Source: Candidatus Omnitrophota bacterium (GTDB lineage: Bacteria; Omnitrophota; Gorgyraeia; 2-01-FULL-45-10). From it: 64,000 bases of DNA. The stretch spans positions 3,748-67,747 of the forward strand of contig JAFGRN010000002.1 of assembly GCA_016935115.1 (NCBI GenBank). The letters run 5' to 3'. Positions 5,943 through 59,683 of the stretch are shown here, piece after piece. The notes beneath the pieces were generated by a model that had not been told where the DNA came from, did not search any database, and saw nothing but the letters and a program-made list of their open reading frames with translations. The translations under genes were made by a program, and so were the position numbers. Positions within the stretch are counted from its first letter, which is position 1. Each line of letters opens with the position of its first letter.

Positions 5943-5964
5943 GCCTGTGGCTTATCGGCCAAGT

Positions 5965-7784: not shown

Positions 7785-7789
7785 ATTGC

Positions 7790-8860: not shown

Positions 8861-8873
8861 GGACTTTATCCCC

Positions 8874-17355: not shown

Positions 17356-19220
17356 CTTAACACACCCTCTTCTTTTGCTATACAGGACGCGATCCTCGCC
17401 GCCGGTTCTTCCCCCCCGACCGGAAAGACATATTTATCTATCATATCCGGGGAATATTTTGAAGGCAGCGCCCCTTCCTTATATTGTTCAAGGCACCGCC
17501 TTAAGCCGTCCCGGTCGCTGACAAAATAGCATCTCGATTCGAGATCCGCTCTCGTCCTGGCATTCAATATGGAGCAGTCCTTAAAGTAAAGGATTATCGG
17601 GATGGGATACAGAAACGCTATCTGGATCAGCATTGTATCGATATTATCTATGATGAGCATGCCATAATCTCCGAAGATTTCCTCAGCCGGGATCTTCCGC
17701 ACAATACGCGCGTCTTTGCCGTACCGTTTTATCAGCCTATTGAAGTGGGCATTCTGGTAATCATCCTGCCCCGGGTGCACCTTCACATCCAGGCGAAGGG
17801 ATAATTCGGCGGTTACGCCCAGGATATCCTTGTGCACAATATACATTTCACCATCCGGCACGTTATATAGTAGCTTCTTCCATGCGTTGAAATTAAATAC
17901 TGTGGGGCCGAACAGGATGGTCCTGCTCTTCAAGGGCGCGATCTTCGCCTTTTTATAGATATCAAAAAATTTCATGGATCCGCATGTGACACCCCCGGGG
18001 AGACCAAGTTCATCGGCACATATTGCATGCTCGATCTTTGAGTGGTATATCTGTATCTTCCTGATATGTTCATTATGCTCGCAATATTTCTGATGGGGGC
18101 ACTTATGAAACGCCTGAACCGACCCGCCATGCTGAAAATAGAATACCGGGATATTATTCTCCGACGCCACATGGGCATAGAGATCCTCGTATGCCCTGCT
18201 TGAGCCGATGGAATAAAGAAAAGCCGATGGCTTGTATTTCTCTATCATGGCCCTTATGGAAAAATCGAAATGGCTTATACGCTCCACGATGTCACGCCGG
18301 TAAATATCGAAGAGCTCCGCCACATACTGCTCAAATACCGGAAAAAACCTCTTAGAGAATGCCGCCAGCTTGTGCCCGTCCCCCATCGCTTTAACGCCCG
18401 CGCCGGAACTTTTCCCTGCATCAGCCGCCAGTTCCCGAGACACTGAGATGAACTTATGGCCGCGCAGGTGCCTCTTCAAACTGGCCACCTCATAGCCATC
18501 CTGAATCACAAATAATGTTCTGGCGCGACCATTCCGGGCAGAGAAGCCGGCGGACATAATCGAAACTGCCTTTTTCCGGATTTGCTTTAACCTGTAGCAA
18601 AATAATCTCCAGCTGATATATCCCGCGGAAAGCTCTCCCCGCGCGCCGTCGATCCACCTGTATCGTCCTGAAAGACATTGAGACAACATGCGAACTTTAT
18701 TTTCGAGCCCAACGAAACGCGGCATAAAGCCATTCGGCGAGACCAGGATGTTCATTTTGAGCGGCCCGTCCCACTCCTTCCTTCCTACGATAATAAAATC
18801 GCCGTACAACTGTTTCATATTTTCGGATACTTTGGAAACATACAACATATCTATGAAGAGTATCAGAAACCAGTAGATATTAGCCGTATAAGCCCTGGGA
18901 AAGCGCGAGTAATGCCCGTACTGCTTATCGAGATCCGCAAAGAGTCCCTCTGTGGCGGCCTGCAGGGTGCCGGCATCAGAATGAAACTGACTACAGGCAT
19001 AAAAGTCCTCGTTTGTTATGCAGGGAATGCCGTTTTCTTCACAGCTGAACATCGCTCCGGGCGTCATGGCATAAATATCGGCGTCTTTCAGGAGCTCTTC
19101 CCCGAGAAGATCCCGCCTGACATAATCGGTCAATATTACCAGTTTCCTATTACCTCGCGTATCTTTCACCGAATACAGCCTCTCTGCATATCCTGCATTC
19201 CCTGGGTGTCTTATTGTCAT
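17352..19220 (-). CDS. large (622 aa) unassigned transferase-like protein; C-terminal region loosely reminiscent of TagF-type glycerophosphotransferases (uncertain)
   Basis: Long ORF in the array orientation. The C-terminal …KVHPGQ…YGMLIIDNIDTMLIQIAFLYPIPIILYF loosely resembles the KxHP…LITDYSS…PVIFF pattern. The annotated ATG at 19220 overlaps the upstream gene by about 70 nt, so the true start may be an internal GTG (about 19169). Confidence 0.4.
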   Translation of the reverse strand: MTIRHPGNAGYAERLYSVKDTRGNRKLVILTDYVRRDLLGEELLKDADIYAMTPGAMFSCEENGIPCITNEDFYACSQFHSDAGTLQAATEGLFADLDKQYGHYSRFPRAYTANIYWFLILFIDMLYVSKVSENMKQLYGDFIIVGRKEWDGPLKMNILVSPNGFMPRFVGLENKVRMLSQCLSGRYRWIDGARGELSAGYISWRLFCYRLKQIRKKAVSIMSAGFSARNGRARTLFVIQDGYEVASLKRHLRGHKFISVSRELAADAGKSSGAGVKAMGDGHKLAAFSKRFFPVFEQYVAELFDIYRRDIVERISHFDFSIRAMIEKYKPSAFLYSIGSSRAYEDLYAHVASENNIPVFYFQHGGSVQAFHKCPHQKYCEHNEHIRKIQIYHSKIEHAICADELGLPGGVTCGSMKFFDIYKKAKIAPLKSRTILFGPTVFNFNAWKKLLYNVPDGEMYIVHKDILGVTAELSLRLDVKVHPGQDDYQNAHFNRLIKRYGKDARIVRKIPAEEIFGDYGMLIIDNIDTMLIQIAFLYPIPIILYFKDCSILNARTRADLESRCYFVSDRDGLRRCLEQYKEGALPSKYSPDMIDKYVFPVGGEEPAARIASCIAKEEGVLR

Positions 19221-20211
19221 TCGAGTTGACAGATCTTCTTATTTCCCGCATGCGCATAGAATTCCATATATCGTAAACACTCTCTAAAAATATGTTTCCC
19301 ACTATCAGTGTGGCGCCATACCAATGGCAGCACGGATGGACCGTACCGTCGTGATATATGGTGAGTCTTTGATATGGTTGAGGGCACGGGCCCGGATTTT
19401 TCAGGTCCTTGCTCTCTATATAGAACATCTCCTGCTGGGCATCTCTGCTTGGATAGCCCTGAGCGGGATTTATATAAGCCTGTATGGATACAAAGTCCAC
19501 TTTATCCTTCCAGCTCCGCACAAATTCGTCCAGCTCACGTTCATTTATTTTACTCTTCACGAAAGATACCCTCGTTACCGGAAGCATGCTCTTCAGCTTG
19601 CGCTTCATGGCCAGCAGGGACCTGATATTGGATACCACCCGCTGCAGGTCTCCTCCCTTACGGACAATGCGATATGTAGATTCTGTCGCGGCATCGATCG
19701 AAAAATAGAGCTTTGTAAGTCCGGCGGCTATCAGCTCTGCCGAGAGCTTCCCGGTAAGCAATGTGCCGTTGGTAATCAATATGACGTCCAGGACACCCGC
19801 AGACCGAGCATATGCCACATAGCGGGCTATGTCAGGAATGAGAAGCGATTCGTTGTTCACGCCGAATGTCACCGACCGGAGCCCGCGGCGGATCCCATCA
19901 TCTATTATCTCTTTATATTTGGCGAAGTCGATACGCTTGCCCCTGTTATCCGGATGATAAGGATTGGACGGCTCAAGTTCGCCTGGATCCACCTGCAGGA
20001 TGCACTGCGGACATTGCAGGTTGCATGCCGCGGAGAGCTCAAAGTCGAGATGAATCGGATAATCCTGCACAAGCTCGCAATTGGCGGCCTTTTCCCAGCA
20101 GGCGCGATATTCGCGGTATGGCGCACCCAGAACCTGAGCGACCATGGCATCAGGGTCTTTTGTATACTCAAACTGTTTCCAGCGCTTGACCGTTTTCATA
20201 ATCTCTCTCAA
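19150..20211 (-). CDS. radical SAM enzyme with C-terminal SPASM/twitch-type Cys-rich domain
   Basis: CNLQCPQC radical SAM motif plus a C-terminal …GPCPQPY…HPCCHWYG auxiliary-cluster region. Confidence 0.7.
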   Translation of the reverse strand: MREIMKTVKRWKQFEYTKDPDAMVAQVLGAPYREYRACWEKAANCELVQDYPIHLDFELSAACNLQCPQCILQVDPGELEPSNPYHPDNRGKRIDFAKYKEIIDDGIRRGLRSVTFGVNNESLLIPDIARYVAYARSAGVLDVILITNGTLLTGKLSAELIAAGLTKLYFSIDAATESTYRIVRKGGDLQRVVSNIRSLLAMKRKLKSMLPVTRVSFVKSKINERELDEFVRSWKDKVDFVSIQAYINPAQGYPSRDAQQEMFYIESKDLKNPGPCPQPYQRLTIYHDGTVHPCCHWYGATLIVGNIFLESVYDIWNSMRMREIRRSVNSNDNKTPRECRICREAVFGERYAR

Positions 20212-21378: not shown

Positions 21379-22167
21379 TCAATTCGTCCTCACGCCTATG
21401 CCGTTCCTGATCATATTATCTTTGGCCCTCGGATATGCCATTTCGGTAAAATGAAATATATTGCCGGCCGCGACCGCCGATACCGTGGTATTGCGCGCGA
21501 CATCGATCAGATCGCGGAATGTCCCCGCGCCCCCGCACGCTATCACCGGTATCGTCACGCTCTTCGCCGCTTTTCCGATCATACCGACATCGTAACCGTT
21601 CGCCATCCCGTCCCGGTCGATCGCATTTAAGAATATCTCGCCCGCGCCGCGTTTCTCCGCCTCGACAGCCCAGGCTACAGGATCGAGATCCGTCTCTTCC
21701 GCGCCGCCCTTATAGACCTTCGGAGCGCCGTTCATATACCTGTAATCTATCGAGACGACTATGCATTGCGAACCAAACTCTCTGGCGCTTCTCGTAATGA
21801 ACGACGGGTCCTCGATCGCCGCAGTATTTATCGTGACTTTGTCGGCGCCGCGCCTGATCCTCTCGCGAATGTCCTCGAGTGTCCTGATGCCCCCTCCGAA
21901 TGTGAGCGGCGCGAAGCAGACCTTCGATATTTCACGTATGATATCCAGGATGTTATTCTTTCCCGTCACCCTGAGATCGTCCCGGCGCAGGTCATAATAT
22001 TTCTCCCTGCTGATATCGACATATATGAGCTCGTCGACATTCCAGTCGTTGTAGCGCTTAACCTCGTCGAGCGGGTTGCCCAGGTTCTGATGGTAGCTGA
22101 ACGTCTCGCTCCTGACGATAAGGCCATTCTTCAAAAATAGCACGGGAATGAGCCTGCGTTTCAACAT
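21379..22167 (-). CDS. HisF-like cyclase subunit (WbuZ-like), second copy
   Basis: HisF-like TIM-barrel sequence (…GADKVTINTAAIEDP…IPVIACGGAG…). Confidence 0.7.
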   Translation of the reverse strand: MLKRRLIPVLFLKNGLIVRSETFSYHQNLGNPLDEVKRYNDWNVDELIYVDISREKYYDLRRDDLRVTGKNNILDIIREISKVCFAPLTFGGGIRTLEDIRERIRRGADKVTINTAAIEDPSFITRSAREFGSQCIVVSIDYRYMNGAPKVYKGGAEETDLDPVAWAVEAEKRGAGEIFLNAIDRDGMANGYDVGMIGKAAKSVTIPVIACGGAGTFRDLIDVARNTTVSAVAAGNIFHFTEMAYPRAKDNMIRNGIGVRTN

Positions 22168-24195
22168 CTATGCCTCTTCCGCATAACTCATCCGCCTTCT
22201 CATGCCGGGAGTATTGGTATGCCTGAAAAAAGACTGTTTCCATTCCGACGAATTACGAAGCTTCCTGCCTCTTTCATGAATATCGTTAAAGTGCGCTATA
22301 TTGGGAACCGACAATTTCAATCTTACGGGAGCGCATTTGTATCTGCCCAGCCTGTCCCTGTAAGACCCTCTCGCCCAGCTCAAGACATCGTGATTGAGTT
22401 TTATATAGATATTTTCCTCTTCCTTCTTCTCGGGGTTCAGGACCATATTCATGGCCAGCTTCTTCAGATCACGGGCCGCCGAACTGAAATCTCGCGCCTT
22501 GATATCGTCCTTATCGTCCAGCAGGACAGTCATAGCATCTATATATTCGTCGATACCCTTATCAAATTTATCGCCGAATACGAACTCTCCTATAAGCACA
22601 TGCCTGAACCTCGTGGGAGGGAAAGGCTTTTTTGAATCGATGATGGACTTTACATGCCTGTAGACCCCTTCCGTCGATTCGAAATAGACACCCTTCACCT
22701 TTCCGGCATACTCGGAGAAGAGGCCATTGAGTATCGGGTACTTATCAGACGAGCCGATTATTTCATCGAATATCCTTATCGGCTTTATCCCGTAGGTAAA
22801 GCCGTGATAAGCAAGCTCCCTCATATAACCGTAAAATAGCGTGATGGTGACGTAAAAATCGACCGCGTAAAGTTTATAGTGCTCCTCGGCCGTCATATAC
22901 TTCGAGCTCTTGACATGTTCCTCGCATTCACAGATCAGTTCTTCGTCAATAATGGATAGCGCATCCGCGCCCAGGGTGAAGTGTGATTCAAAACCATGTT
23001 TAGCCCTGCTATCCTTCGAAGCAAGCTCCGTGTTAGGCAAAAGCCACACTTCATGGCAGCCTACGCCATCGACCCGCAGTTCATATACATCGTTCACGCA
23101 CCTGGTAAAAGTTTCGTATGTCTCTCCGGGAAATCCGTGCAGGATCTCGGTTCCGGTAACCATATTATTCTCTTTAGCCCAACGGAACGCTTCGGACATC
23201 TCCTTCATCGAACAGTTTCTTCTGTTGATGTTTTTAAGAACCTCGGGAGTGGTCGACTGCAGGCTGATATTGTACGGTATGTGCTCCTTAAGCGCCAGGG
23301 CTACCCTCCTTACGCGGTCGTTCGTCGCTTTGTCCGTGTAGACCTTCAATGCTTCCGGATACCCTTCCTTTGAATATAGCCTTCCTATGAATTCGGCCAA
23401 TTCCACATCCCGGTCCAGGATGCCCAGATTATCGTCGGTGATGCGAAAGCTGCGGTTCTTTGCATGCTTCTTGATATAGAGGATCTCGTCCTTCGCCCTC
23501 TCCAGCGAAAAAGGACGGATCTTCGAATAAACTTTCTCTCCGGAAACACAGTAGGAACAGCGGTACGGGCATCCCCGCATCGTCTGAATAACCGGCATGA
23601 GCATTGGATCGCCTAAAAATTCATCCGTAGCTCCCGTCAAATAAGGTGAGGGTATCTCGTTGACATCCCCGAGAAGCGGCAGCAACAGGCCAGACGATAA
23701 CCGGCCCCTATCGTATGTAAAACAACCCTGAATCGGATCTGAAAATATGTTCTGTCTCGAAAGCGCGCCCATCACACGCTCCAGAAGACGAACCATCGGC
23801 AGCTCGCCTTCATACGGAATGTACACGTCAAACAAGCCGCCGTATCTATCGGCATAACGCTCTCTTATATTACCCTCGTTCGCCGGGATATTTAACCCCC
23901 CTGCCACAAGAATGGCATCCGGATGCATTCTTCGGACAGCCCTTGCGAACCATATGCTGAGATTTTCATTCCACGCGTATATACCGAACCCCGCTACATC
24001 GGGTTTCTCTATCTTTATCCTCTCGAGCAGCGCGTCGGGATAACGAAATGTGCGGATCTCCACGCCACCCTTAAAGTGCTTTTGAAGCATCGCCTTGACG
24101 TAAGAGATACCTATGGGAACCGTCGACGGGCTGATGTTGAAATAGGTATGCCCCAGGTCTGCTAAAAATATTTTCAAACGCGCTTTCGTATCCAC
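22168..24195 (-). CDS. large (675 aa) cobalamin-binding radical SAM enzyme, inserted between the HisH-like and HisF-like genes
   Basis: MRGCPYRCSYC with a B12-binding-like N-terminus; a member of the three-gene 675-aa paralogue group. Confidence 0.8.
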   Translation of the reverse strand: MDTKARLKIFLADLGHTYFNISPSTVPIGISYVKAMLQKHFKGGVEIRTFRYPDALLERIKIEKPDVAGFGIYAWNENLSIWFARAVRRMHPDAILVAGGLNIPANEGNIRERYADRYGGLFDVYIPYEGELPMVRLLERVMGALSRQNIFSDPIQGCFTYDRGRLSSGLLLPLLGDVNEIPSPYLTGATDEFLGDPMLMPVIQTMRGCPYRCSYCVSGEKVYSKIRPFSLERAKDEILYIKKHAKNRSFRITDDNLGILDRDVELAEFIGRLYSKEGYPEALKVYTDKATNDRVRRVALALKEHIPYNISLQSTTPEVLKNINRRNCSMKEMSEAFRWAKENNMVTGTEILHGFPGETYETFTRCVNDVYELRVDGVGCHEVWLLPNTELASKDSRAKHGFESHFTLGADALSIIDEELICECEEHVKSSKYMTAEEHYKLYAVDFYVTITLFYGYMRELAYHGFTYGIKPIRIFDEIIGSSDKYPILNGLFSEYAGKVKGVYFESTEGVYRHVKSIIDSKKPFPPTRFRHVLIGEFVFGDKFDKGIDEYIDAMTVLLDDKDDIKARDFSSAARDLKKLAMNMVLNPEKKEEENIYIKLNHDVLSWARGSYRDRLGRYKCAPVRLKLSVPNIAHFNDIHERGRKLRNSSEWKQSFFRHTNTPGMRRRMSYAEEA

Positions 24196-24208: not shown

Positions 24209-24832
24209 TTAACAGCAGACGGCCTCTTTTACCTCCGCGAACCGCCTGAGAATACCCAACCCCGCAGCCTGACTCTTCTCGGGATGAAACTGCACCGCAT
24301 AGATATTGCCTTTTTCAATCATGGCCGTAAACTCCAATCCGTAACGGCACGTTGCTGTAATTATCCGGCTATCCGCGGTATCGACATAATAGCTGTGGAC
24401 AAAGTACATGTCCGGGCTGCCGGAGGCATCGAGGAGGCGGTTACCGCGCCTGACTGTTATATCATCCCATCCCATATGGGGTATGCAGACACCCGTATTA
24501 TCCGGGATGCGCCTTACAACAGCGTCTATCCATCCGAGCCCATCATGGCGCCCGAACTCGAAACTCTCCCTGCATATGAGCTGCATGCCGAGGCATATGC
24601 CTAAAAACGGCTTATTCTGTTCTATAACCTCTTCCCGGAGCGCTTCAATGAATCCTCTTTTTCGGAGCGCTTCCATGCCGACACCGAATGCCCCTACTCC
24701 TGGGAGGACTATCCTGGAACAGGCGGAGAGATCATCCCTCTTTTCAATTACCTGGGCGGCGGCGCCGACATATTCGAAACCGTTAAGCACCGACTGGACA
24801 TTGCCCATACCATAATCAATAATACCTATCAT
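24209..24832 (-). CDS. HisH-like glutamine amidotransferase subunit (WbuY-like), second copy
   Basis: MIGIIDYGMGN start, catalytic GICLGMQ, and FHPEKS. Confidence 0.75.
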   Translation of the reverse strand: MIGIIDYGMGNVQSVLNGFEYVGAAAQVIEKRDDLSACSRIVLPGVGAFGVGMEALRKRGFIEALREEVIEQNKPFLGICLGMQLICRESFEFGRHDGLGWIDAVVRRIPDNTGVCIPHMGWDDITVRRGNRLLDASGSPDMYFVHSYYVDTADSRIITATCRYGLEFTAMIEKGNIYAVQFHPEKSQAAGLGILRRFAEVKEAVCC

Positions 24833-24834
24833 TG

Positions 24835-25881
24835 TTATCCTTTACCGGATCTGCCGGAATAAAAATGAGAGAGCTTCAGCGGTGTCCCGCGGCGAAGCGC
24901 CCTGCCGGCACGTTTTCCTATAACCGTCTTGATATGCACCGGAGCGATGCCATTAGCCGGGCGTATCGAACGGATATTGCCGGCCGTCAGGAGAGCTCCC
25001 TTCTTTATATCCTCTACGATAAAGAGCGACCTGCGGAATATGCGATTCTTCTTCTCCCCGGCGGTGAGCTTATAGGACACATCCCCCGACGCCTTCTCGG
25101 CTGTACGCACATCCTGCACCAGCTGCTTCATCTCATCCGGCTCAAGCGAGAAAAAACTGTCGGGTGTCTTCATCGCCCTGGATAGCGTGAAATGCTTCTC
25201 TATGACCGATGCGCCGAGCGCTACCGCTACAACCGGCACTACAGCGCTCAGGCTGTGATCGGAAAGGCCGATGGGGCATCCGAAGCGGGAGCGCATGTCC
25301 GGTATGGTCCTCAGGTTCATCTCTTCGGGAACGGCCGGATAACTGCTGACGCATTTCAGGAGTGTGATGGACCCCGCGCCATGCGAACGCGCAGCCGTAA
25401 CCGCCGCGCGAACCTCTTTCCTGCTGGCCATTCCAGTAGACATAATCAGCGGCTTCTTCGTTCCGGATACGTACTCGATCAATGGTATGTCGATGAGCTC
25501 AAAAGACGCTATCTTGTGCGTCGAAACGCCGAGCTCCTCCAGAAAATCCACGGAAGTAGGGTCAAAAGCGGTCGACAGAAATCCCAGCCCTTGGTCGTCC
25601 GCCTCTTTCTTCAGCTTTTTGAACCACTTCCATGGCGTATACGCCTTGCGGTACAACTCATACAACGTCTGGCCTCCCCATCTGGGATGGTCTATCCTGA
25701 AGTGCCCGAGCGCGCTGTCTATCGTAAGCGTATCTGGCGTATAGGTCTGAAATTTCACCGCATCTACACCGCACGCCCTGGAAGCGCGTATGAGCTTAAT
25801 AGCAGTCCCTATGTTCTGGCCGTGATTGGCGGAAATTTCGGCTATGATAAATGTTTTCTTATCTCTGGATACATTCTTCAT
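24835..25881 (-). CDS. NeuB-family nonulosonate synthase (PseI-like) with C-terminal SAF domain
   Basis: KTFIIAEISANHGQN…VDAVKFQTY motif and a C-terminal antifreeze-like domain. Confidence 0.75.
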   Translation of the reverse strand: MKNVSRDKKTFIIAEISANHGQNIGTAIKLIRASRACGVDAVKFQTYTPDTLTIDSALGHFRIDHPRWGGQTLYELYRKAYTPWKWFKKLKKEADDQGLGFLSTAFDPTSVDFLEELGVSTHKIASFELIDIPLIEYVSGTKKPLIMSTGMASRKEVRAAVTAARSHGAGSITLLKCVSSYPAVPEEMNLRTIPDMRSRFGCPIGLSDHSLSAVVPVVAVALGASVIEKHFTLSRAMKTPDSFFSLEPDEMKQLVQDVRTAEKASGDVSYKLTAGEKKNRIFRRSLFIVEDIKKGALLTAGNIRSIRPANGIAPVHIKTVIGKRAGRALRRGTPLKLSHFYSGRSGKG

Positions 25882-25884
25882 CGA

Positions 25885-27117
25885 TCAGGCAGCCTGTTGT
25901 TTAATGTCTTCTTTTGTCGGTTTATATGCCATAAAATACATCATCCCGAGTCCGTTCGTACCTTTGAATATATGCCTTGATCCCAATATCCTCTTTTTAA
26001 TAGCAACCTTATCTTTACGTTTCAGGGGCCTGATGATAGCGCAAAGCTCCCTGAAGAATGGATCCTGTTTTTTGCCAATACGCCTCATTAAATCGACCTT
26101 GCCGACCGCCGAACGATACCTGCGTATCATGTCAAGAAAACTATCACAATTAAATGGTGAATTAGGAGAAAAATCATTAACATAGTCTATGAGATCGTAC
26201 TGTGTTTCGGCCAGTTTCCGGAATGAATCCAGAAGCCATGGGACCTCTTTAATATCGTCCCTCTTATGAGTCATCCAGAGCGCTTCCGCCAGGACGCCTA
26301 TGTCCGGATACCTCTGTGCCATGGTCGTCGGGCGCATGCCGGAATCTCCGAACACGGGTAACAGGATGGGTGGATACGACGAATAGTACCTGAGACCCTT
26401 ATCCGACATCCATTTGAGCACTTCCGACACGGCAGGATAATCGGTCTTGGGATTTACAAATTCGTCATAGATAATCGCCCGGCGCGTCCTCTTGCCGAAT
26501 TTCTGGGCCCTGGAGATATCTTCACGGAACAATTCCTCGGCTACGTCAACTATATCTTCCTCTGTCCTGGCAAAACGGAATATTATCGCCCTCTGGAGCA
26601 TCCTCTGGAAACAACCAGCTTTGGAGTTTATTCCGAGGAAAAGATATCCTCCTTCTTTCAGGTGATCATTCATTATCGAAAAAGCGCCTTCTTTGTCGGA
26701 GGTGTGATGAATCGCTCCGTTGGACACGACGATATCGTACTTTTTCCTATCACTGAAGTCGAAGATGGATGAATTGATAATCTTATGTTTTTTCGGATGC
26801 GGCGCGAACTTATCGAAGATCATCCTTGCCCGGGCGCATGCCAGGTCATTCATCTCTACGAGCGTGCAGGTAGCCCCCCACCTTGCGTACTGGACGGTGT
26901 TCTCCCCAGTCCCCGCGCCGAGGTCTATGAGCGTCTTGCCAAGGAACATATCGATGGGAAAATGCAGGAGATCCCTGAATAGCCTGACTCGCTTGCTTTC
27001 CCAGCTGTGAAAATCTTTCTGCGACCTGTCGATGAAATAAGTTGAAGGATTCTCCTTCCTGTATACCTTAAGCACTCTCTTCTCCATCGACCTGGTCTTT
27101 TTTGCTGTCATACGCAT
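25885..27117 (-). CDS. class I SAM-dependent methyltransferase with C-terminal extension (410 aa)
   Basis: SAM-binding motif I LIDLGAGTGENT and an acidic loop VEMND. Confidence 0.6.
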   Translation of the reverse strand: MRMTAKKTRSMEKRVLKVYRKENPSTYFIDRSQKDFHSWESKRVRLFRDLLHFPIDMFLGKTLIDLGAGTGENTVQYARWGATCTLVEMNDLACARARMIFDKFAPHPKKHKIINSSIFDFSDRKKYDIVVSNGAIHHTSDKEGAFSIMNDHLKEGGYLFLGINSKAGCFQRMLQRAIIFRFARTEEDIVDVAEELFREDISRAQKFGKRTRRAIIYDEFVNPKTDYPAVSEVLKWMSDKGLRYYSSYPPILLPVFGDSGMRPTTMAQRYPDIGVLAEALWMTHKRDDIKEVPWLLDSFRKLAETQYDLIDYVNDFSPNSPFNCDSFLDMIRRYRSAVGKVDLMRRIGKKQDPFFRELCAIIRPLKRKDKVAIKKRILGSRHIFKGTNGLGMMYFMAYKPTKEDIKQQAA

Positions 27118-27118
27118 C

Positions 27119-28867
27119 CTATGTGTTTAAGACATCATCCTTGTCATTAACAACAAGATAATTCTCCATCGCCAGATATTTCAATCCACTGTCCCGGAAT
27201 GCCCTGAGAGCGTCGTTCGGCGTGCAAACTATAGGCTCCTCATGCATGTTGAAGCTGGTATTAATGAGGCTCGGGTTCCCGGTGAGCCTGTAATATTGAG
27301 TGAGGATCTTATGGAACGACGGGTTTGAATTGCGGGATACTAATTGCGGCCTGGCTGTCCCGTCGACATGCACCACACCGGGCGAGTGCTTCTTCATCCA
27401 TGGCGTGCAATCAAATGTGGTGGTCATATGCAGGGCCCGTTCCTTATAATTCGCGATCCTCCTATAGCATTTTTCGGCCGCTTCCCACAGGGTCGCCGGA
27501 GCAAAGGGCATAAACTCGCTTCTCCTGAGGGCTTTATTGAGCCAATCATTGACGGTTCTGTCCATAGTTCCGTACAGTATAGTGCGGTTGCCGAGAGCCC
27601 GTGGGCCATATTCCATTCTTCCCGCAAAACGCATTATGCAATTATTATCCTTCAAAAGCTCCGCTATCCTGACTTCAATATCCGAATGATAGGAAGACGA
27701 ATATCCGAACCTCCTGATCTCTGAAAGAACTTCCCTGTCGCCGAACTTCGGCCCCCTGTAAAGAGATCCTATCTTTACGGGCTTAAGCCTCTTCTGAAGG
27801 GCATAATAGTAGAGGGCGCTGCCGGCCGACATCCCGCCGTCTCCCATCTGCGGATAGACAAACAGGTCTTTTATCCCGGCCTTCTCCCTTATCTTCTGAT
27901 TCAATAATACGTTGGCAAATATACCGCCCGCAACCGTGACCTTCGAACCTTTTGGAATCAGGTCATTCACATACTCGAGGACAACCCTTTCCAGGACACG
28001 CTGGGCCGCCGCGGCGACATCTTCGCGCTTATATTTTTTCACGATCTCCTCAAGACGGGTATTTTCAAACTTTGCCGCGTACAGGCCGGCCTCAAAACCC
28101 CCTTCAAAAGCTTTTCTGACCCCGTTATAAGAGATCATCTTTCTCATCCACGGCATGGCCCTGTCGGCATCTCCGAGGGCGGCAAGCCCCAGCACCTTAC
28201 CCTCGTGGCGATGAGGGATGAATCCGAGGGCCTTTGTAACACTGCCATAAAAATACCCGAGCGAATCGAAAGAGTTCGACAAAGCTATCTTTTCTATGCG
28301 TCCCTTGCTTCCGCGGCACAGGATGTTGGACTCCATCTCACCCCAGCCATCCGCGGTCATTACATAGCAATCGTCCCAACCGCTGGCATAGTAGGCGGAG
28401 GCAGCATGGGACATATGATGCTCCACCACCTTTATCGGTTTCTTGAATTTTTTGAATTGCCGGATAAGGCTTATATTTCGCTCGAAAACTACGTGTTTCT
28501 CGTGCTCATAGCGCTCGCGGATCTCCTTCAGTTTATACGCCTTGAGATCCTTTGAAAGACACGATTTGCTTATCTTATCCTCAACGTACGAGAACTTATC
28601 GCGCATAAGCCCGACTTCGGCATCCAGGCCGTGATTGATAAATTCTATCCCATCCTCGCTGGAACAGTATCCCTGCGTCGCGATAACATCGACATCCTTC
28701 ATGGATATTCCCGCGTCACGAAGCACCCACTCTATCGAGCGCCGGGGAATCCCGTAGAAGAGCTTAACCCTGTTAAGCCGTTCCTCGTTTATCACACTGA
28801 CGAGCTTCCCGTTCTTTACGATGCATGCTCCCGCATCAGACAGATAGCTTATACCAAGTATGATCAA
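27119..28867 (-). CDS. carbamoyltransferase, NodU/CmcH family
   Basis: MIILGISYLSDAGACIVKNGKLV…EERLNRVK and EHHMSHAASAYYASGWDD…ADGWGE are hallmarks of NodU-type O-carbamoyltransferases. Confidence 0.8.
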   Translation of the reverse strand: MIILGISYLSDAGACIVKNGKLVSVINEERLNRVKLFYGIPRRSIEWVLRDAGISMKDVDVIATQGYCSSEDGIEFINHGLDAEVGLMRDKFSYVEDKISKSCLSKDLKAYKLKEIRERYEHEKHVVFERNISLIRQFKKFKKPIKVVEHHMSHAASAYYASGWDDCYVMTADGWGEMESNILCRGSKGRIEKIALSNSFDSLGYFYGSVTKALGFIPHRHEGKVLGLAALGDADRAMPWMRKMISYNGVRKAFEGGFEAGLYAAKFENTRLEEIVKKYKREDVAAAAQRVLERVVLEYVNDLIPKGSKVTVAGGIFANVLLNQKIREKAGIKDLFVYPQMGDGGMSAGSALYYYALQKRLKPVKIGSLYRGPKFGDREVLSEIRRFGYSSSYHSDIEVRIAELLKDNNCIMRFAGRMEYGPRALGNRTILYGTMDRTVNDWLNKALRRSEFMPFAPATLWEAAEKCYRRIANYKERALHMTTTFDCTPWMKKHSPGVVHVDGTARPQLVSRNSNPSFHKILTQYYRLTGNPSLINTSFNMHEEPIVCTPNDALRAFRDSGLKYLAMENYLVVNDKDDVLNT

Positions 28868-29913
28868 TTTGGCCCATCTCCTCTTTCAAGCAGAATCTTA
28901 TTGAGAGCGGAATATGCGCGATCGGGGCTCTTGCCGTCTATGATGCGCTGGCCTATCTCAGAACACCTGCGGCGTTCCTGCCTGGGCATCAGGCCCATGA
29001 CGCATCTGCGCACATTTTCAATTATCTCGGGATCGTCATGCCATCCGGCAAATGTCATAAATCCGGCGGCTTCCCAGCCGGAAAGGTTCACTTTCTGATT
29101 ATCGGCGACGCCGATACCCACCGTAGGGACACCCATAGACGCCAGTTCATAGAGCGTCTGCCCGCCGGCCGATATGGAGATGTCCGCCTTTCCCATGGCA
29201 TCTCTCATGGCCCGGGCATCAGGATGATAGATCAGCTCCACGCCATTTCCGGTCAGCTGTTCTATCCTCCCGACCTCTTTAAAACCTTTTCCCACAATTA
29301 CCAGCACCGACAGTTCCGGAAATCCGGAGCGGAACATCTCCAGAACGCGCGGCGTCATCCGCCGCATATCCTCCCCACCGAATGTAATGAGCGCGGTTTC
29401 AGGCAGAGCCGGTATGTCCTTTTTGGGAGCTTTCCGGAATTCGCTTCGCAGGAAGGCGTACTGCGCGCCGAGAATGTAACTCATCTCCTCTCTTTTGGGA
29501 TAACCCAGTTTCTCCGAGGATATGGCGCCGTTAAGTACCACTCCTTTCGGATAATCCATCCTTTTGAAATCGTCAATATATACGGCGCATCCGGCCTCAT
29601 CGGAAACCCTTTTGTAAAAACTTCTTCCGGCCAGGTAAGAATCCAATATCACCATATCGGAATCTCGCACGTATCCGAAGAATCTATCAGCCTCATTGAT
29701 CCAGTCAAATACATGCAGGCGCTTTCCGCTTACCAGATCCGCCACTGCTTCGTCTCCGTTTATGATGAAGAACGGCTCGTCCCCATTATCCTCAAATACC
29801 TCGTACAGGGATATACACCTGGTTATATGCCCGAAGCCTATACTCGCGCTTCCTTCGGTAATGATACCGACTTTCATCCCACGGCGATCCATATTTTGTC
29901 CTCTTTGCACCAC
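28864..29913 (-). CDS. PseG-like UDP-sugar hydrolase (MurG-like GT-B fold)
   Basis: N-terminus KVGIITEGSASIGFGHITRC resembles the PseG (UDP-2,4-diacetamido-2,4,6-trideoxy-hexose hydrolase) N-terminal G-loop. Confidence 0.6.
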   Translation of the reverse strand: MVQRGQNMDRRGMKVGIITEGSASIGFGHITRCISLYEVFEDNGDEPFFIINGDEAVADLVSGKRLHVFDWINEADRFFGYVRDSDMVILDSYLAGRSFYKRVSDEAGCAVYIDDFKRMDYPKGVVLNGAISSEKLGYPKREEMSYILGAQYAFLRSEFRKAPKKDIPALPETALITFGGEDMRRMTPRVLEMFRSGFPELSVLVIVGKGFKEVGRIEQLTGNGVELIYHPDARAMRDAMGKADISISAGGQTLYELASMGVPTVGIGVADNQKVNLSGWEAAGFMTFAGWHDDPEIIENVRRCVMGLMPRQERRRCSEIGQRIIDGKSPDRAYSALNKILLERGDGPN

Positions 29914-30794
29914 TTATCCAGCTCTTCATCTATGTAGGGCATGGGCCCGAGCATCTTCTCCGCTCTAGAAACATCCAGGGTCGTATTTTTAGGGCGCCGC
30001 GCGGTAAAACGCTCTTCATCTATGCTCTTCGGCGTTATTAGGGCCGGATCGAGCCCTAACCTTCTTGCGATACGGCATCCCAGGTCGTACTTGCTCACTC
30101 CGTCGCGGGCACCGAGATGCAGGCATCCTGTAAGTCCCGATCGGATCAGCCTCATGATAAATCCCGCATATGTCATTATATCGAGCGGCGCAAATATTAC
30201 ATCCGTAAACATGTTTATAGGAATCCCCGACCGTAAACTCCGCGCAACCCATTCCGCCAGCGAGTCTTCGCGCGTATGGCGGTGACCGATGATATTCGAC
30301 CGTAATATGAGATAATCTCCGGCGCTTTTCCTGACCTGCCGCTCACCCTCGAGCTTTGACATGGCATAATTATTTATCGGATTCGGCTTATCATCTTCAC
30401 TGTACATGCCCATGGCCCCGTCAAATACGGAGTCAGTCGATATATAGACAAACTTTATGTCCGGCGCTGCCGATTCGGCAAGGTACGCCGCCGAATCGGC
30501 ATTCACGGAGAGCGCCATTTCGTAGTTCTTTTCGCATATGTCAACATTCGTAAGGGCCGCGCAATGCACTATGACGTCCGGTTTAGTCCTGGTAACCATA
30601 TCCCGCACCGCTGATCTGTCGCAGATATCCACATTGAATGATTCCGCGGCATCCGTACTTTTAAGCGTTCTGGAGACGCTCATCGTATGATATTCTGTAT
30701 TCAGCATTCTGATCAGGGCGGCCCCCAGCATACCGGTACCTCCGACGATAAGCGCTCGGCCGCCCACTCTACGCAACCGCCTTCTGCTCGACAT
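29874..30794 (-). CDS. NAD(P)-dependent sugar reductase/epimerase (SDR, RmlD/FnlB-like)
   Basis: ALIVGGTGMLGAAL Rossmann motif at SDR size; overlaps neighbours on both sides. Confidence 0.55.
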   Translation of the reverse strand: MSSRRRLRRVGGRALIVGGTGMLGAALIRMLNTEYHTMSVSRTLKSTDAAESFNVDICDRSAVRDMVTRTKPDVIVHCAALTNVDICEKNYEMALSVNADSAAYLAESAAPDIKFVYISTDSVFDGAMGMYSEDDKPNPINNYAMSKLEGERQVRKSAGDYLILRSNIIGHRHTREDSLAEWVARSLRSGIPINMFTDVIFAPLDIMTYAGFIMRLIRSGLTGCLHLGARDGVSKYDLGCRIARRLGLDPALITPKSIDEERFTARRPKNTTLDVSRAEKMLGPMPYIDEELDKWCKEDKIWIAVG

Positions 30795-31494
30795 GCCGGT
30801 TTATCGCCACGAGATCGGGCCTATTCCTGAGCAGGGCAACGACGTCGCGCGATCGGATAAACTTAAGATGCCCCAGCGCCTTAAATATTTCGGACACGTG
30901 ACGAAGATCGTCGGCGGTATCGACGGTCACCCTGAAAGATGATGCATCGTCATCGCCGGCATATGCCTTTACAGGAAGGTTTTCGTATATGTACGGGGTT
31001 ACATGCTCCCGTTCACGCTTCTCTCCTGCTTTGTCATATGCCTCTTTGAGCGAATCCATACTGAAAACTTCAGCGTCAAACCCGCGGGGGTATGTCCTTG
31101 TAATGGTATTGGACATGTACGCTACATCATCAGCTGACAAAAAGGAGCGCACCATGTCATCGATCATATATGGATCCGATAGCGGACAGTCGGAAGTTAC
31201 CCGCACCACGGTATCCAACCTGTATTCTTTCGCCGCTTCGTAATATCGTGCCAGCACGTCGTCCTCATCGCCGCGATATACTGAAACGTCCTCATCCCGG
31301 GCGCATTTGACTATAACGTCATCGCGCCCGTTCCTGGTGGTAGCCACGATTATCACGTCCGCGGTCTCGCAGGCTTTCAATCGCCCGAGCAGAATGGCAA
31401 GCATGGGCTTATCCGCTATCTCCATCATCACCTTGCCGGGAAGCCTGCTCGAACCCATCCGCGCCTGCACAATGATACCGGTCCTTCCAGCCAT
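30769..31494 (-). CDS. CMP-nonulosonate cytidylyltransferase (PseF/SpsF-like)
   Basis: TGIIVQARMGSSRLPGKV N-terminus typical of the PseF/SpsF cytidylyltransferase family. Confidence 0.65.
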   Translation of the reverse strand: MAGRTGIIVQARMGSSRLPGKVMMEIADKPMLAILLGRLKACETADVIIVATTRNGRDDVIVKCARDEDVSVYRGDEDDVLARYYEAAKEYRLDTVVRVTSDCPLSDPYMIDDMVRSFLSADDVAYMSNTITRTYPRGFDAEVFSMDSLKEAYDKAGEKREREHVTPYIYENLPVKAYAGDDDASSFRVTVDTADDLRHVSEIFKALGHLKFIRSRDVVALLRNRPDLVAINRHVEQKAVA

Positions 31495-32472
31495 TTATCC
31501 GCCTCCGACAAGAGACTTAAGTTCGCTCACGGAAAGCCATTCACCGTTCGAATCGCTGGAATACCTGAACCCGTCGGGCACGCTCCTGCCGCGCTTGTAC
31601 TTCTTATCCGGATGGTAAAACGCGGGCCGGATTACATAATACCTCCCGAACTCCGTGGTATTACGGGAGTCGTCTTCGGAGATCATCACCTCGTGAAGCT
31701 TCTCGCCCGGCCGGATACCTATAGTCTTCAGGCGGCATCCGGGCGCGATAGCCCTGGCAAGATCCGTTATTGACATGCTAGGAATCTTCGGAACAAATAT
31801 CTCGCCGCCTTCCATGATCTTGAATTTATCGATAACAAACTTCACCGCCTCGTCAAGCGTGATCCAGAAACGTGTCATACGCGGATCCGTTATCGGCAGG
31901 ATGGCGGTCTTCTTCCTGGCAAGAAAGAACTCCACGACTCCGCCGCGGCTTCCCAGCACATTTCCGTACCGGACCACCGAGAACCGCACGCCGCCCTTTC
32001 TGGAATAGAAATTGCCGTCGACAAACAATTTATCTGAACAGAGCTTGGTCGCGCCGTACAGGTTAACGGGATTGCACGCCTTATCACTGCTTAAGGCTAT
32101 AACCTTCTTGACGCCGCATTCGATCGAGGTCTCGATAAGATTCATCGCGCCGATTATATTCGTCTTTATGGCCTCACCGGGGTTGTACTCCATTAGCGGC
32201 ACCTGTTTGAGCGCCGCAGCGTGAACCACATAGTCGACGCCACGGAGCGCCATCCGCAGGCGTTCGCGGTCCCTGACATCTCCTATAAAATACCGCATCA
32301 CTTCTTTATGCGCGGCGAATTGCTCCTGCATCTTGAACTGCTTAAATTCGTCGCGGCTATACACTATCAGTCGCTTCGGCATATGTTGCCGCAGAACAGC
32401 CTGTATAAAACATTTCCCGAATGACCCCGTACCGCCGGTAACCAGTATTACCTTTCCCCTGAATATGCCCAT
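31495..32472 (-). CDS. pseB: UDP-N-acetylglucosamine 4,6-dehydratase (inverting), PseB/FlaA1/CapD family
   Basis: KVILVTGGTGSFGK…FIGDVRD…LYGATK match PseB-type short CapD dehydratases; GGAGA lies upstream of the ATG. Confidence 0.7.
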   Translation of the reverse strand: MGIFRGKVILVTGGTGSFGKCFIQAVLRQHMPKRLIVYSRDEFKQFKMQEQFAAHKEVMRYFIGDVRDRERLRMALRGVDYVVHAAALKQVPLMEYNPGEAIKTNIIGAMNLIETSIECGVKKVIALSSDKACNPVNLYGATKLCSDKLFVDGNFYSRKGGVRFSVVRYGNVLGSRGGVVEFFLARKKTAILPITDPRMTRFWITLDEAVKFVIDKFKIMEGGEIFVPKIPSMSITDLARAIAPGCRLKTIGIRPGEKLHEVMISEDDSRNTTEFGRYYVIRPAFYHPDKKYKRGRSVPDGFRYSSDSNGEWLSVSELKSLVGGG

Positions 32473-32489: not shown

Positions 32490-32984
32490 TTAAACGAATT
32501 TATCGACTAAAGTAAGCGCTGTTGTCGCAAACGACTTGAGCTCTTCTATCTTTTTAAGCCTGTCCTCAAATATCGTCTTGACCCTCTTCTCCTCTTCGGT
32601 TTCATTTGCGCCCTGGGCGCGGATCATGTCCTTGAACCCATCGACGATGTCGGAAGTTTCATCCAGCCTTCTCTTCATTACCTCTTTTATCTTCCTGAGC
32701 ATAAAACTCTTCACGTCCAGGTTGGCTTCGTAATAGTCCTTGCGCGAACCCTTGACCCAGACGCTGTTCACCGCTCCCCAATTTTCAAGCACACGTATGT
32801 TGACGCTTACATTGCCTTTGCTGACCTTAAGTTTTTCGACAATCTCATCGAGGGATAAGGGCTTATCGCTCAAGTACAGCACGGCATACAGCTGGGCAAT
32901 GAATCTGTTAAATCCGAAATTATCACACAATTTGCCTATTCTCTCTATGAATTTGTCCTGCGCAAGTTCAAGCTTACTATCCAT
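32490..32984 (-). CDS. GbsR/MarR-family winged-helix transcriptional regulator
   Basis: Small protein (164 aa) with an N-terminal wHTH-like region (…FIAQLYAVLYLSDKPLSLDEIVEKLKVSKGNVSVNIRVLENWGAV…). First gene downstream of a promoter/operator region, with GGAGA 6 nt before the ATG. Confidence 0.65.
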   Translation of the reverse strand: MDSKLELAQDKFIERIGKLCDNFGFNRFIAQLYAVLYLSDKPLSLDEIVEKLKVSKGNVSVNIRVLENWGAVNSVWVKGSRKDYYEANLDVKSFMLRKIKEVMKRRLDETSDIVDGFKDMIRAQGANETEEEKRVKTIFEDRLKKIEELKSFATTALTLVDKFV

Positions 32985-33108: not shown

Positions 33109-34479
33109 TTAGTATAATGAGCTCAGCTTTTCAAGATACGTATCAGACTTCGGATATGTTACCGGTCTTTGTATAAGAGCTGTTATCTCATTGAAGTAAT
33201 GGTCCAATACCTCATCCGGAAGCTTTGTGAAATTGATCGTTCGCTCAAAGAACAGGTTACCCAGGCTCTTGATAAATTCCCATTCATCCTTGATCTGGCC
33301 GTTATTTACACATTCCCTCCACAGACGGGTGCCCGGTGACGGCGTCAGGTATGACAACTTTCCCTTCTTCTCAAGGCCGTTTCTCTTTATGAAATCGATC
33401 ATGTCAATATAATCCTTCTCTGTATCCCATGGAAAGCCTACGATGAAATTTGCGGAAACGCCGATACCATATTTTCGCAGCAGCGCAAGCTTTCCCTCGA
33501 CATCCCTGATCCTTATACCCTTACTTACGCGATTCAAGGTCTCCTGGTTTACGGACTCGATGCCGGTTGCCACAACCGCAAGGCCGTTATCTCTGCCTAG
33601 CGAGCATATCTCCTCGTCTATGGCATCTATACGACATTGTCCTCTATATGTAAAGTTCATGCCCAACCGTTGTTTTTTCACTATAAAGTCCTTGTAAAGC
33701 GCTTTTATCTCCAGAAAATTCTCGTCGACAAAGTAGAATCTGTCGAGATCATGATTATTTATGATCCCTGCCATCTCATCCAGAATCATATCAGGGCTCT
33801 TTACGCCTATTCCCTGGACCAGCTTGTGACAGAACGAACAATTCCCTTTACAGCCACGGGATCCCATAATATCGAACGACTGATTAGTTTCTTTAAGGTA
33901 TTTTATATAAAATTCCATATCAAGCGACTCGTAGTTTGAGGCGGAAAGAGCTGTCAATTGATACATATTGTTGACACGCGCTCCGACGATCATCTTATCG
34001 GGTTTTATTCCGAAGATACTGCCATTGAGCCTGTAGAATATGCCCGGTATATTATCCGGACGGAAGTTTCCGGCCCAAATAGATCGTATGAACGCTGGAA
34101 AGGCCTTCTCTCCTTCGCCTACAAGGATATACGCGCACTTACAGTTATTGAGCAATAGTTCCGGCATCGAGGAAGGCAAAGCTCCGCCATAGATGATGAT
34201 ATGTTCCGGATTTATATCAAGCGCGATCCCGGCAAATTTTTCAACCTGGTTTATCTGGTCGTTCCCGGCCATTATATTAAAACCTATTATGGCCGGCTTC
34301 GACGGGATCCTTTCCCGGAAGACCCTTTCACGATCTGCCGTATCCACGGGAACGAGATCGATGGCGTCAAAGTCGATATTATGCAGTCTGAGGGTATTGG
34401 CGAGCACGGTCAGCCATATGGGCAGCTGTACCTGCACGCTCTTTCTCGATACGTTTACAATAAATACGTCGTATGGCAT
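33109..34479 (-). CDS. cobalamin-binding (class B) radical SAM enzyme
   Basis: SRGCKGNCSFCHK with a B12-binding-like N-terminus. The track start (34629) lies inside the upstream gene; the ATG at 34479 (MPYDVFIVNV…) sits 16 nt after the upstream stop. Confidence 0.75.
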   Translation of the reverse strand: MPYDVFIVNVSRKSVQVQLPIWLTVLANTLRLHNIDFDAIDLVPVDTADRERVFRERIPSKPAIIGFNIMAGNDQINQVEKFAGIALDINPEHIIIYGGALPSSMPELLLNNCKCAYILVGEGEKAFPAFIRSIWAGNFRPDNIPGIFYRLNGSIFGIKPDKMIVGARVNNMYQLTALSASNYESLDMEFYIKYLKETNQSFDIMGSRGCKGNCSFCHKLVQGIGVKSPDMILDEMAGIINNHDLDRFYFVDENFLEIKALYKDFIVKKQRLGMNFTYRGQCRIDAIDEEICSLGRDNGLAVVATGIESVNQETLNRVSKGIRIRDVEGKLALLRKYGIGVSANFIVGFPWDTEKDYIDMIDFIKRNGLEKKGKLSYLTPSPGTRLWRECVNNGQIKDEWEFIKSLGNLFFERTINFTKLPDEVLDHYFNEITALIQRPVTYPKSDTYLEKLSSLY

Positions 34480-34495
34480 AGTGTTGTCCCGTATA

Positions 34496-39230: not shown

Positions 39231-39246
39231 CTTCCCTTTCTCACTG

Positions 39247-43034: not shown

Positions 43035-43050
43035 GATATCCTCGCCGGAG

Positions 43051-43614: not shown

Positions 43615-43618
43615 AGCT

Positions 43619-44884: not shown

Positions 44885-44891
44885 AATTGTC

Positions 44892-45926: not shown

Positions 45927-45927
45927 A

Positions 45928-59670: not shown

Positions 59671-59683
59671 CTTATATGCAGCC

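Follow-up and report, generated by a model that had tools for sequence, protein, structure and literature searches.

A candidate reductase- and carbamoyltransferase-dependent variant of pseudaminic acid synthesis encoded in an Omnitrophota sugar island

We analysed a 64-kb stretch (hereafter the window) of a 126.9-kb contig, JAFGRN010000002.1, from a Candidatus Omnitrophota bacterium (assembly GCA_016935115.1). At positions 24835-32472 it carries a set of genes that an earlier note, made from the sequence alone, had described as a pseudaminic-acid-like module joined by a carbamoyltransferase and a large methyltransferase. The seven open reading frames (ORFs) are present on the minus strand at exactly the coordinates first noted, and their identities were borne out by matches to curated profiles (Pfam, and NCBIfam/TIGR equivalogs), with each score judged against the cut-off of its model. 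E-values across the seven assignments ranged from 1e-30 to 1e-148, which excludes chance. The genes are listed here in the direction of transcription.

31495..32472, minus strand: PseB, inverting UDP-N-acetylglucosamine (UDP-GlcNAc) 4,6-dehydratase; TIGR03589, 493.8 bits (cut-off 407.75)
30769..31494, minus strand: CMP-nonulosonate cytidylyltransferase; CTP_transf_3 (PF02348), 107.6 bits
29874..30794, minus strand: predicted RmlD-like NAD(P)H-dependent sugar-nucleotide 4-ketoreductase; RmlD_sub_bind, 184.6 bits
28864..29913, minus strand: predicted divergent PseG-like UDP-sugar hydrolase; TIGR03590, 142 bits, slightly short of the cut-off (153.55)
27119..28867, minus strand: TobZ/NodU-family carbamoyltransferase; Carbam_trans_N, 156.7 bits, and Carbam_trans_C, 179.2 bits
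25885..27117, minus strand: class I S-adenosylmethionine (SAM) methyltransferase of 410 aa; Pfam domain at residues 46-175 plus ~230 unassigned residues
24835..25881, minus strand: PseI, phosphoenolpyruvate (PEP)-condensing pseudaminic-acid-type synthase; TIGR03586, 439.8 bits (cut-off 340.25)

The dehydratase scored 225.4 bits with the FnlA model, whose cut-off is 730, and the synthase scored 310.6 bits with the NeuB model, under the cut-off of 399.65, which settles the choice between NeuB and PseI in favour of PseI. The cytidylyltransferase did not match the PseF equivalog TIGR03584; a second cytidylyltransferase in the window (7074-7784) matches PseF at 163 bits. The reductase reached 173.3 bits with the rmlD equivalog TIGR01214, under the cut-off of 224, and its best solved match is the RmlD-like structure 2GGS (5e-38), with which its GGTGMLG, ISTDSVFDG and YAMSK motifs align (short-chain dehydrogenase/reductase (SDR) fold, Ser/Thr-Tyr-Lys). 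We read it as a protein of 306 aa because the 285-aa call in other records starts inside the GxxGxxG motif. It is not a stray rhamnose gene, since the window encodes RmlC elsewhere, 12 kb off at 43051-43614 and paired with an SDR of its own at 42141-43034, and a role as an EpaB/AciE-type epimerisation partner was ruled out because EpaB and AciE belong to a different family, adh_short_C2.

The PseG-like protein, which probably starts at the ATG at 29877 that overlaps the reductase stop codon as ATGA, gave no match in a single-sequence search of solved structures. A profile of its clade returned Campylobacter jejuni PseG (3HBM) as the sole significant match, at 1.2e-8 over the full length, and the GFGH catalytic-His motif is invariant in the clade. 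MurG, which had been named as a possible better fit, was ruled out: the clade profile found no MurG, and Glyco_tran_28_C scored 20 bits on the protein. For the carbamoyltransferase, the nearest solved relatives (7XB6, TobZ, NovN and GdmN) are all O-carbamoyltransferases, and the metal-binding and adenylation motifs HHMSH, DG, GDGG, GRMEYGPRALGNR and NTSFN align with 7XB6. Its distinction from HypF stood, as HypF was ruled out at 26 bits, but the contrast first drawn between NodU/CmcH-type and TobZ-type enzymes was false, both being one family. The methyltransferase belongs to a family of ~400-aa proteins sharing 38-52% identity over 97% of their length. Its AlphaFold2 model (predicted local distance difference test score 91.9) matched only generic class I methyltransferases in a fold search, and the structure search gave no specific fold match for its helical C-terminal domain. 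With their catalytic motifs intact, the reductase, the carbamoyltransferase and the PseG-like protein look functional.

Canonical pseudaminic acid (Pse) synthesis also requires PseC and PseH, which the earlier note had reported as not adjacent to the module; neither was found in the window. A six-frame scan of the 64 kb with a profile from three true PseCs recovered just two DegT genes, with PseC scores of 255.9 and 287 bits against a cut-off of 423.5 and 33-37% identity to true PseCs. The DegT gene at 13813-14922 is LegC-like (405.7 bits versus a cut-off of 420) and adjoins a LegB equivalog (484.4 versus 475). The best matches of the one at 57506-58690 are GDP-perosamine synthase (205 bits) and ArnB, with Helicobacter pylori PseC far lower at 86 bits, and it is accompanied by its own SDR, a NeuD/PglB/VioB-type acetyltransferase (169.7 versus 160.8) and an ArnC/PgfS-like GT2. 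The earlier note had proposed testing whether these distal aminotransferase and acetyltransferase pairs fill the missing steps. This is unlikely given that each belongs to another module, and we ruled them out as PseC/PseH substitutes. Each aminotransferase of the window has its own dehydratase and acyltransferase, and the only keto-processing partner of PseB is the RmlD-like enzyme. No PseH was found: the module is without a GNAT-family acetyltransferase and its intergenic gaps of at most 17 nt leave no space for one (outside the module, the search covered ORFs of 150 aa or more). The sole GNAT of the window is a 381-aa Acetyltransf_9 protein (61200-62345) with no NCBIfam match.

Six of the seven genes (PseB, the cytidylyltransferase, the RmlD-like reductase, the PseG-like hydrolase, the carbamoyltransferase and PseI) form a core that occurs together in five further metagenomic lineages. 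By carbamoyltransferase identity these are L002/L003 (79%), L004 (67%), a closed 1.43-Mb Omnitrophota genome (CP070780.1, GCA_020346285.1), L005/L006 (66%), L013 (64%) and L015 (51%), the last with a shuffled gene order. The RmlD-like/PseG-like and PseG-like/carbamoyltransferase junctions of the window are ATGA-type overlaps, and the 4-nt overlap by which the carbamoyltransferase is translationally coupled to the PseG-like gene is kept in four of the five further lineages. The cytidylyltransferase is kept in all related clusters. Orthologs of the carbamoyltransferase number about 20, are metagenomic and share 60-79% identity; in a contig scan of species-representative genomes its relatives were only 39-47% identical, none of them in a Pse context. 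The 410-aa methyltransferase, which had been counted as a module member, is absent from L002, L005 and L013 and is better described as an accessory gene outside the conserved core. In L005 and L015 an aldo-keto reductase and cytidylyltransferase pair resembling EpaA is also present.

We then placed the reductase in a wider family, in which a scan with an alignment of RmlD-like relatives gave 80 loci and locally built hidden Markov models were used to score 84 non-redundant loci. Among the 53 loci that extend far enough downstream, a NeuB-family gene directly follows the RmlD-like gene in 43 and lies no more than 3.5 kb away in 51. PseB is found within 6 kb upstream in 27 of 29 loci. The PseBs sampled from related loci pass the equivalog cut-off (502-514 bits). 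PseB and the reductase are directly adjacent in 11 of 50 loci, forming bare PseB-reductase-NeuB cassettes, and 11 of 26 complete spans between PseB and NeuB contain no aminotransferase of either class.

If the reductase and the carbamoyltransferase jointly restore an acetamido-like group at C4 of the hexose, the late enzymes should be canonical only where the carbamoyltransferase occurs, and this prediction held. In all five carbamoyltransferase-bearing clusters the synthase passes as a PseI equivalog (444-466 bits versus 340), whereas in five reductase-only clusters it misses both cut-offs (PseI 232-331, NeuB 252-356). PseG-like genes were found only in the carbamoyltransferase-type loci, on two short contigs with the closest reductases (L018 and L020), and in three others; a search of soil-type loci with C. 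jejuni PseG found nothing. A PseC pseudogene lies directly after an intact PseB at L016:6255-6747, in a cluster with an intact RmlD-like gene and NeuB. Its central ~220 residues are deleted, and what remains is residues 23-76 (60-69% identity) and 299-400 (41-43%). The L016 reductase groups with that of the window in a neighbour-joining tree without support values. The recurrence of the core, the 84-locus survey, the retention of PseI and PseG, and the L016 locus support the suggestion of the earlier note that the module is a variant route using a non-canonical reductase.

The RmlD-like gene also occurs in a widespread soil/peat cluster (L077:5528-12012, L026:3315-9600, L078:4571-12000 and about 40 other loci). 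Its gene order starts with PseB, in some cases followed by a true PseC, and continues with a 1028-aa protein that fuses a GFO/IDH/MocA oxidoreductase, a cytidylyltransferase and a class III aminotransferase, then the RmlD-like gene, NeuB, a GT4 and a flippase. The NeuB of this cluster fits neither the PseI nor the NeuB equivalog, PseG is not detectable, and the cluster appears to encode an undescribed nonulosonic acid pathway.

We propose that in the window the reductase and the carbamoyltransferase replace PseC and PseH and yield a 7-O-carbamoyl analogue of 5,7-di-N-acetylpseudaminic acid (Pse5Ac7Ac), a reading that we give an even chance of being correct. The route would have six steps and differ in two of them from the parallel CMP-pseudaminic acid pathway (PseB, C, H, G, I, F). 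PseB, an enzyme identified here whose reaction is taken from its equivalog, would convert UDP-GlcNAc to UDP-2-acetamido-2,6-dideoxy-beta-L-arabino-hex-4-ulose. The RmlD-like enzyme would use NAD(P)H to reduce the 4-keto group, forming a UDP-6-deoxy-L-N-acetylhexosamine (UDP-6-deoxy-L-HexNAc) with a 4-hydroxyl, without transamination by PseC. Reduction of a PseB-type product is an established reaction class, with WbvR as an RmlD-like example, and NCBIfam has a model for such an enzyme (NF047837, UDP-2-acetamido-2,6-beta-L-arabino-hexul-4-ose reductase). In place of N-acetylation by PseH, the TobZ-type enzyme would form carbamoyl-AMP from carbamoyl phosphate and ATP and transfer the carbamoyl group to the 4-hydroxyl, either on the UDP-sugar or on the free sugar. 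An O-carbamoyl group (O-CO-NH2) resembles an N-acetyl group (NH-CO-CH3) in shape, and the PseG-like hydrolase and PseI could therefore accept the sugar. The former would free it from UDP, the bona fide PseI would condense it with PEP, and the cytidylyltransferase would activate the product last.

The predicted acid is 5-acetamido-7-O-carbamoyl-3,5,9-trideoxy-non-2-ulosonic acid (C12H20N2O9). The search for a +43 Da shift proposed in the earlier note presumes that carbamoyl is added onto Pse5Ac7Ac; replacement, the best-supported reading, predicts 336.117 Da versus 334.138 Da for Pse5Ac7Ac. A downstream WbuX/HisH/HisF amidotransferase set probably turns the 5-N-acetyl into an acetamidino group, for which the predicted mass is 335.133 Da. 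The 410-aa methyltransferase and a B12-radical SAM enzyme may add lineage-specific methyl groups, each of +14.016 Da; for the methyltransferase, both an O-methyl and an N-methyl on the acetamidino group are possible. More broadly, the exchange of ketoreductase and carbamoyltransferase for PseC and PseH may have given rise to a new nonulosonic acid class, a mono-amino isostere of Pse5Ac7Ac with a 7-O-carbamoyl group, as one branch of wider undescribed reductase-dependent pathways (more than 80 metagenomic loci with their own synthase clade). This wider claim is tentative, and we put it slightly below an even chance.

Several points weigh against replacement of PseC and PseH. The modules of L005 and L015 include a class III aminotransferase and that of L005 also a GNAT, and in L004 a hexapeptide acetyltransferase gene separates the carbamoyltransferase gene from PseI and a DegT gene lies two genes upstream of PseB, although this DegT is just 31-34% identical to true PseC. 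In the soil-type loci L035, L073 and L078, PseB has as its neighbour a DegT gene that scores as true PseC (474-498 bits versus 423.5), and in clusters of this type PseC is often followed by the Pse-associated methylase TIGR03587. As the reductase coexists with true PseC at these three loci, replacement of PseC does not hold across the whole RmlD-like family; the reductases of these loci fall into a distant clade of the same unsupported tree. PseC and PseH could lie outside the 64 kb, and retention of PseI and the PseG-like protein is equally expected if ordinary Pse5Ac7Ac is made. C. jejuni PseA, a member of the WbuX family, acts on the 7-N-acetyl of Pse, and if the WbuX of the window acts like PseA, a 7-N-acetyl is required. 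Gene order places PseG before the carbamoyltransferase, and the carbamoyl acceptor and the timing of transfer are pure inference.

A first alternative is synthesis of ordinary Pse5Ac7Ac, or its acetamidino form Pse5Ac7Am, through a PseC and PseH encoded outside the window, with the carbamoyltransferase and methyltransferase decorating a free O4 or O8 and the RmlD-like enzyme, for example, supplying a second 6-deoxy-L-HexNAc or epimerising a position. We consider this explanation unlikely. It is consistent with a PseI that passes its equivalog cut-off, the presence of a PseG-like gene, the true PseC beside RmlD-like genes in L035, L073 and L078, the known action of WbuX/PseA-type amidotransferases on 7-N-acetyl Pse, and a window covering half of the source contig. 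However, a PseC-like gene is missing from the nearest ~25 kb of the window and from the nearest 10 kb in L002, PseC has decayed in L016 beside an intact PseB, reductase and NeuB, and the known epimerisation partner EpaB is of a different family (adh_short_C2). The reductase, a conserved core member that is ATGA-coupled to the PseG-like gene, would moreover be left without a role. The reductase could instead be used as we propose, with the route ending in a 7-hydroxy mono-amino acid and the carbamoyl group being added elsewhere or later, to O4, O8, the CMP-sugar or the finished glycan. Reductase-only cassettes are widespread, so a 7-hydroxy route can exist without a carbamoyltransferase, and because distant carbamoyltransferases (28-30% identity) occur in legionaminic acid (Leg)-type clusters without the reductase, carbamoylation of nonulosonic acids need not target O7. 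We hold this to be doubtful, and marginally less probable than ordinary Pse synthesis, as it leaves unexplained both the conserved translational coupling of PseG and carbamoyltransferase and the retention of PseI and the PseG-like protein solely in carbamoyltransferase-bearing clusters, with a different synthase clade in the reductase-only ones.

The remaining alternatives place the carbamoyl group on nitrogen or take the reductase out of the nonulosonic acid pathway. N-carbamoylation of an amine, derived from an unrecognised aminotransferase or from deacetylation, would give a ureido substituent. A carbamoyltransferase fused to a polysaccharide deacetylase domain does occur in a nonulosonic acid cluster (L097), but it is of a different clade (29% identity); class III aminotransferases lie within the L005 and L015 modules, but the window module has neither an aminotransferase nor a deacetylase, and the nearest deacetylase is 34 kb away. 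The wider Kae1/YrdC superfamily performs N- and S-carbamoyl chemistry, but the close solved relatives are all O-carbamoyltransferases, and we regard the ureido product as improbable. Finally, PseB and the RmlD-like enzyme could make a stand-alone UDP-6-deoxy-L-HexNAc (of the N-acetyl-L-quinovosamine (L-QuiNAc), N-acetyl-L-rhamnosamine or N-acetyl-L-pneumosamine type) that does not feed the synthase. The WbvB/WbvR/WbvD and WbjB/WbjC/WbjD systems share this chemistry, and an NCBIfam reductase equivalog for the PseB-type product exists. Against this, the dehydratase is a PseB equivalog and not FnlA (225 versus 730 bits), no FnlC/WbvD-type 2-epimerase lies alongside, the PseG-like protein and PseI would be left without a substrate source, and the near-universal adjacency of reductase and NeuB points to a shared pathway, which makes a stand-alone sugar the least probable product of all.

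The seven genes do not stand alone: the module opens a 16-gene operon that extends from PseB (32472) to LegB (14906) with gaps of at most 17 nt and runs into a legionaminic-acid module. Genes upstream and downstream of the module are as follows.

32490..32984, minus strand: helix-turn-helix (HTH) regulator (ArsR/MarR/TrmB-like), 17 nt upstream of PseB; Pfam HTH_5/MarR_2
24209..24832, minus strand: HisH-type glutaminase subunit of the amidotransferase set; TIGR01855, 220 bits
22168..24195, minus strand: B12-binding radical SAM enzyme, KedN5-like C-methyltransferase; NF033712, 161 bits; Radical_SAM and B12-binding domains
21379..22167, minus strand: HisF-type cyclase subunit of the amidotransferase set; His_biosynth, 196.5 bits
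20208..21377, minus strand: WbuX/PseA-type N-acetyl-sugar amidotransferase (N-acetyl to acetamidino); TIGR03573, 319.7 bits (cut-off 203.2)
19150..20211, minus strand: radical SAM/SPASM protein (Pfam), 76% identical to L002 and 55% to L013
17352..19220, minus strand: 622-aa protein after the module, without a family match; 40% identical to L002 and 36% to L005

A MarR-type gene takes the equivalent position upstream of PseB in L002. HisH is kept after PseI in L002 and L013, and the amidotransferase is 84% and 75% identical in these two lineages, respectively. The B12-radical SAM gene between HisH and HisF is specific to the window, with none at that position in L002. The 622-aa protein had no Pfam or NCBIfam match, and its L004 counterpart has weak DUF354/Glyphos_transf matches; as a guess, it is a candidate transferase. 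Large proteins close both nonulosonic acid modules, this one and, at 1125-3059, a protein of 644 aa that has a weak PFTS motif. A comparison of the two found no similarity, and both may be sugar transferases. A PFTS domain fused to a cytidylyltransferase is found at L013:5611-8112.

Nearly the entire window is one minus-strand sugar island, and scans of the window for tRNAs and Rfam families were empty. Following the 622-aa gene in the operon is a complete legionaminic-acid-type module (4507-15904), which consists of LegB, a LegC-like gene, a B12-radical SAM gene, a formyltransferase-like gene, NeuB (467.7 versus 399.65), NeuC (460.7), a CBS-nucleotidyltransferase, a cytidylyltransferase, and its own, second WbuX/HisH/HisF set. 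Where the LegH acetyltransferase is expected, the formyltransferase-like gene (11046-11762) and the B12-radical SAM gene are found, which suggests an N-formyl or otherwise unusual 7-substituent. A modified-sugar module at 40409-47231 (CmcI-type O-methyltransferase, GHMP kinase, SDR, RmlC-type epimerase, TylC3-like C-methyltransferase, SDR, SIS isomerase and nucleotidyltransferase) looks like a heptose or branched 6-deoxy-sugar route. An amino-sugar module at 55919-61164 encodes an ArnC/PgfS-like GT2, a NeuD/PglB-type acetyltransferase, a perosamine-synthase/ArnB-like aminotransferase, an SDR, a second hexapeptide acetyltransferase and a GFO-type UDP-GlcNAc 3-dehydrogenase-like protein.

The island holds nine B12-binding radical SAM genes, two radical SAM/SPASM genes and one MiaB-like gene, among them one that is KedN5-like (C-methyltransferase type) and one fused to DUF2334.

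B12-binding radical SAM genes: 3063-4451, 11759-13813, 15901-17355, 22168-24195, 33109-34629, 34496-35983, 47366-49381, 50934-52505 and 53298-55898
Radical SAM/SPASM and MiaB-like genes: 19150-20211, 37127-38092 and 38028-39269

C-methylation of sugars is a possible role for these enzymes and might bear on the 'higher-carbon ulosonic acids' detected by mass spectrometry (PMC8157484; preprint 10.64898/2026.04.20.719630).

Carbamoyltransferases of a distant second clade (28-30% identity) lie beside homologs of the 410-aa methyltransferase in the regions L097:8001-12475, L098:8001-9260 and 13381-15009, and L005:18767-20962, that of L097 being a 1088-aa fusion with the polysaccharide deacetylase domain. 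Because this clade recurs in Leg-type clusters, carbamoyltransferases seem to have been recruited to nonulosonic acid pathways more than once. Homologs of the 410-aa methyltransferase (45% identity) are present in two Leg-type clusters that also carry second-clade carbamoyltransferases.

Nonulosonic acids cap bacterial surfaces and flagella, shape phage and host recognition, and are hard to synthesise. A carbamate-for-acetamide swap, if true, would extend the short list of natural backbones, would show how the late enzymes of a pathway can be retained when a new substituent imitates the shape of the old one, and would offer enzymes for the production of Pse analogues. The survey suggests that uncultivated bacteria have an extensive, uncharacterised branch of nonulosonic acid synthesis linked to the reductase, and that carbamoyltransferases were repeatedly recruited into nonulosonic acid clusters. 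A search of the full-text literature found nothing linking carbamoyl with pseudaminic, legionaminic or nonulosonic acids, and no description of a reductase route.

Compared with the canonical Pse pathway of H. pylori and C. jejuni, the window shares the PseB and PseI equivalogs, a predicted PseG-family hydrolase with the catalytic His, a cytidylyltransferase, an equal number of steps and an associated WbuX/PseA-type amidotransferase. It differs in having a ketoreductase and a carbamoyltransferase where PseC and PseH are expected, a PseG-like protein that falls under the equivalog cut-off and matches C. jejuni PseG at the profile level only, and a module cytidylyltransferase that misses the PseF model. 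With TobZ, NodU, CmcH, NovN and GdmN, which act in their own systems on sugar or sugar-like hydroxyls, the carbamoyltransferase shares the Kae1-like plus YrdC-like architecture and aligned motifs. Unlike them, its clade is metagenome-only (the 60-79% orthologs) and is placed inside a nonulosonic-acid operon, and its score with the NodU equivalog is 135 against a cut-off of 1000. Extra oxidoreductases in or beside nonulosonic acid pathways are also seen in EpaA/EpaB and in AciE (8-epimerisation); EpaB and AciE are adh_short_C2 SDRs and not RmlD-like, and neither an aldo-keto reductase nor a GFO partner is encoded in the module of the window. The synthesis of N-acetyl-L-fucosamine (L-FucNAc) and of L-QuiNAc is known to include reduction of the PseB-type product, and WbvR is RmlD-like. 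The WbjB/WbjC/WbjD (L-FucNAc) and WbvB/WbvR/WbvD (L-QuiNAc) routes, which include EC 1.1.1.367, thus resemble the window in the SDR-catalysed C4 reduction of a PseB-type 4-keto-6-deoxy-L intermediate. In contrast to these routes, the dehydratase of the window is PseB and not FnlA, and there is no accompanying 2-epimerase (the only Epimerase_2 gene of the window is the NeuC equivalog in the Leg module). Its reduced sugar also seems to go on to a hydrolase and then a PEP-condensing synthase, and not to a glycosyltransferase. Sugar O-carbamoylation and reduction of the PseB product are each known, and it is the joining of both in a nonulosonic acid pathway that is new.

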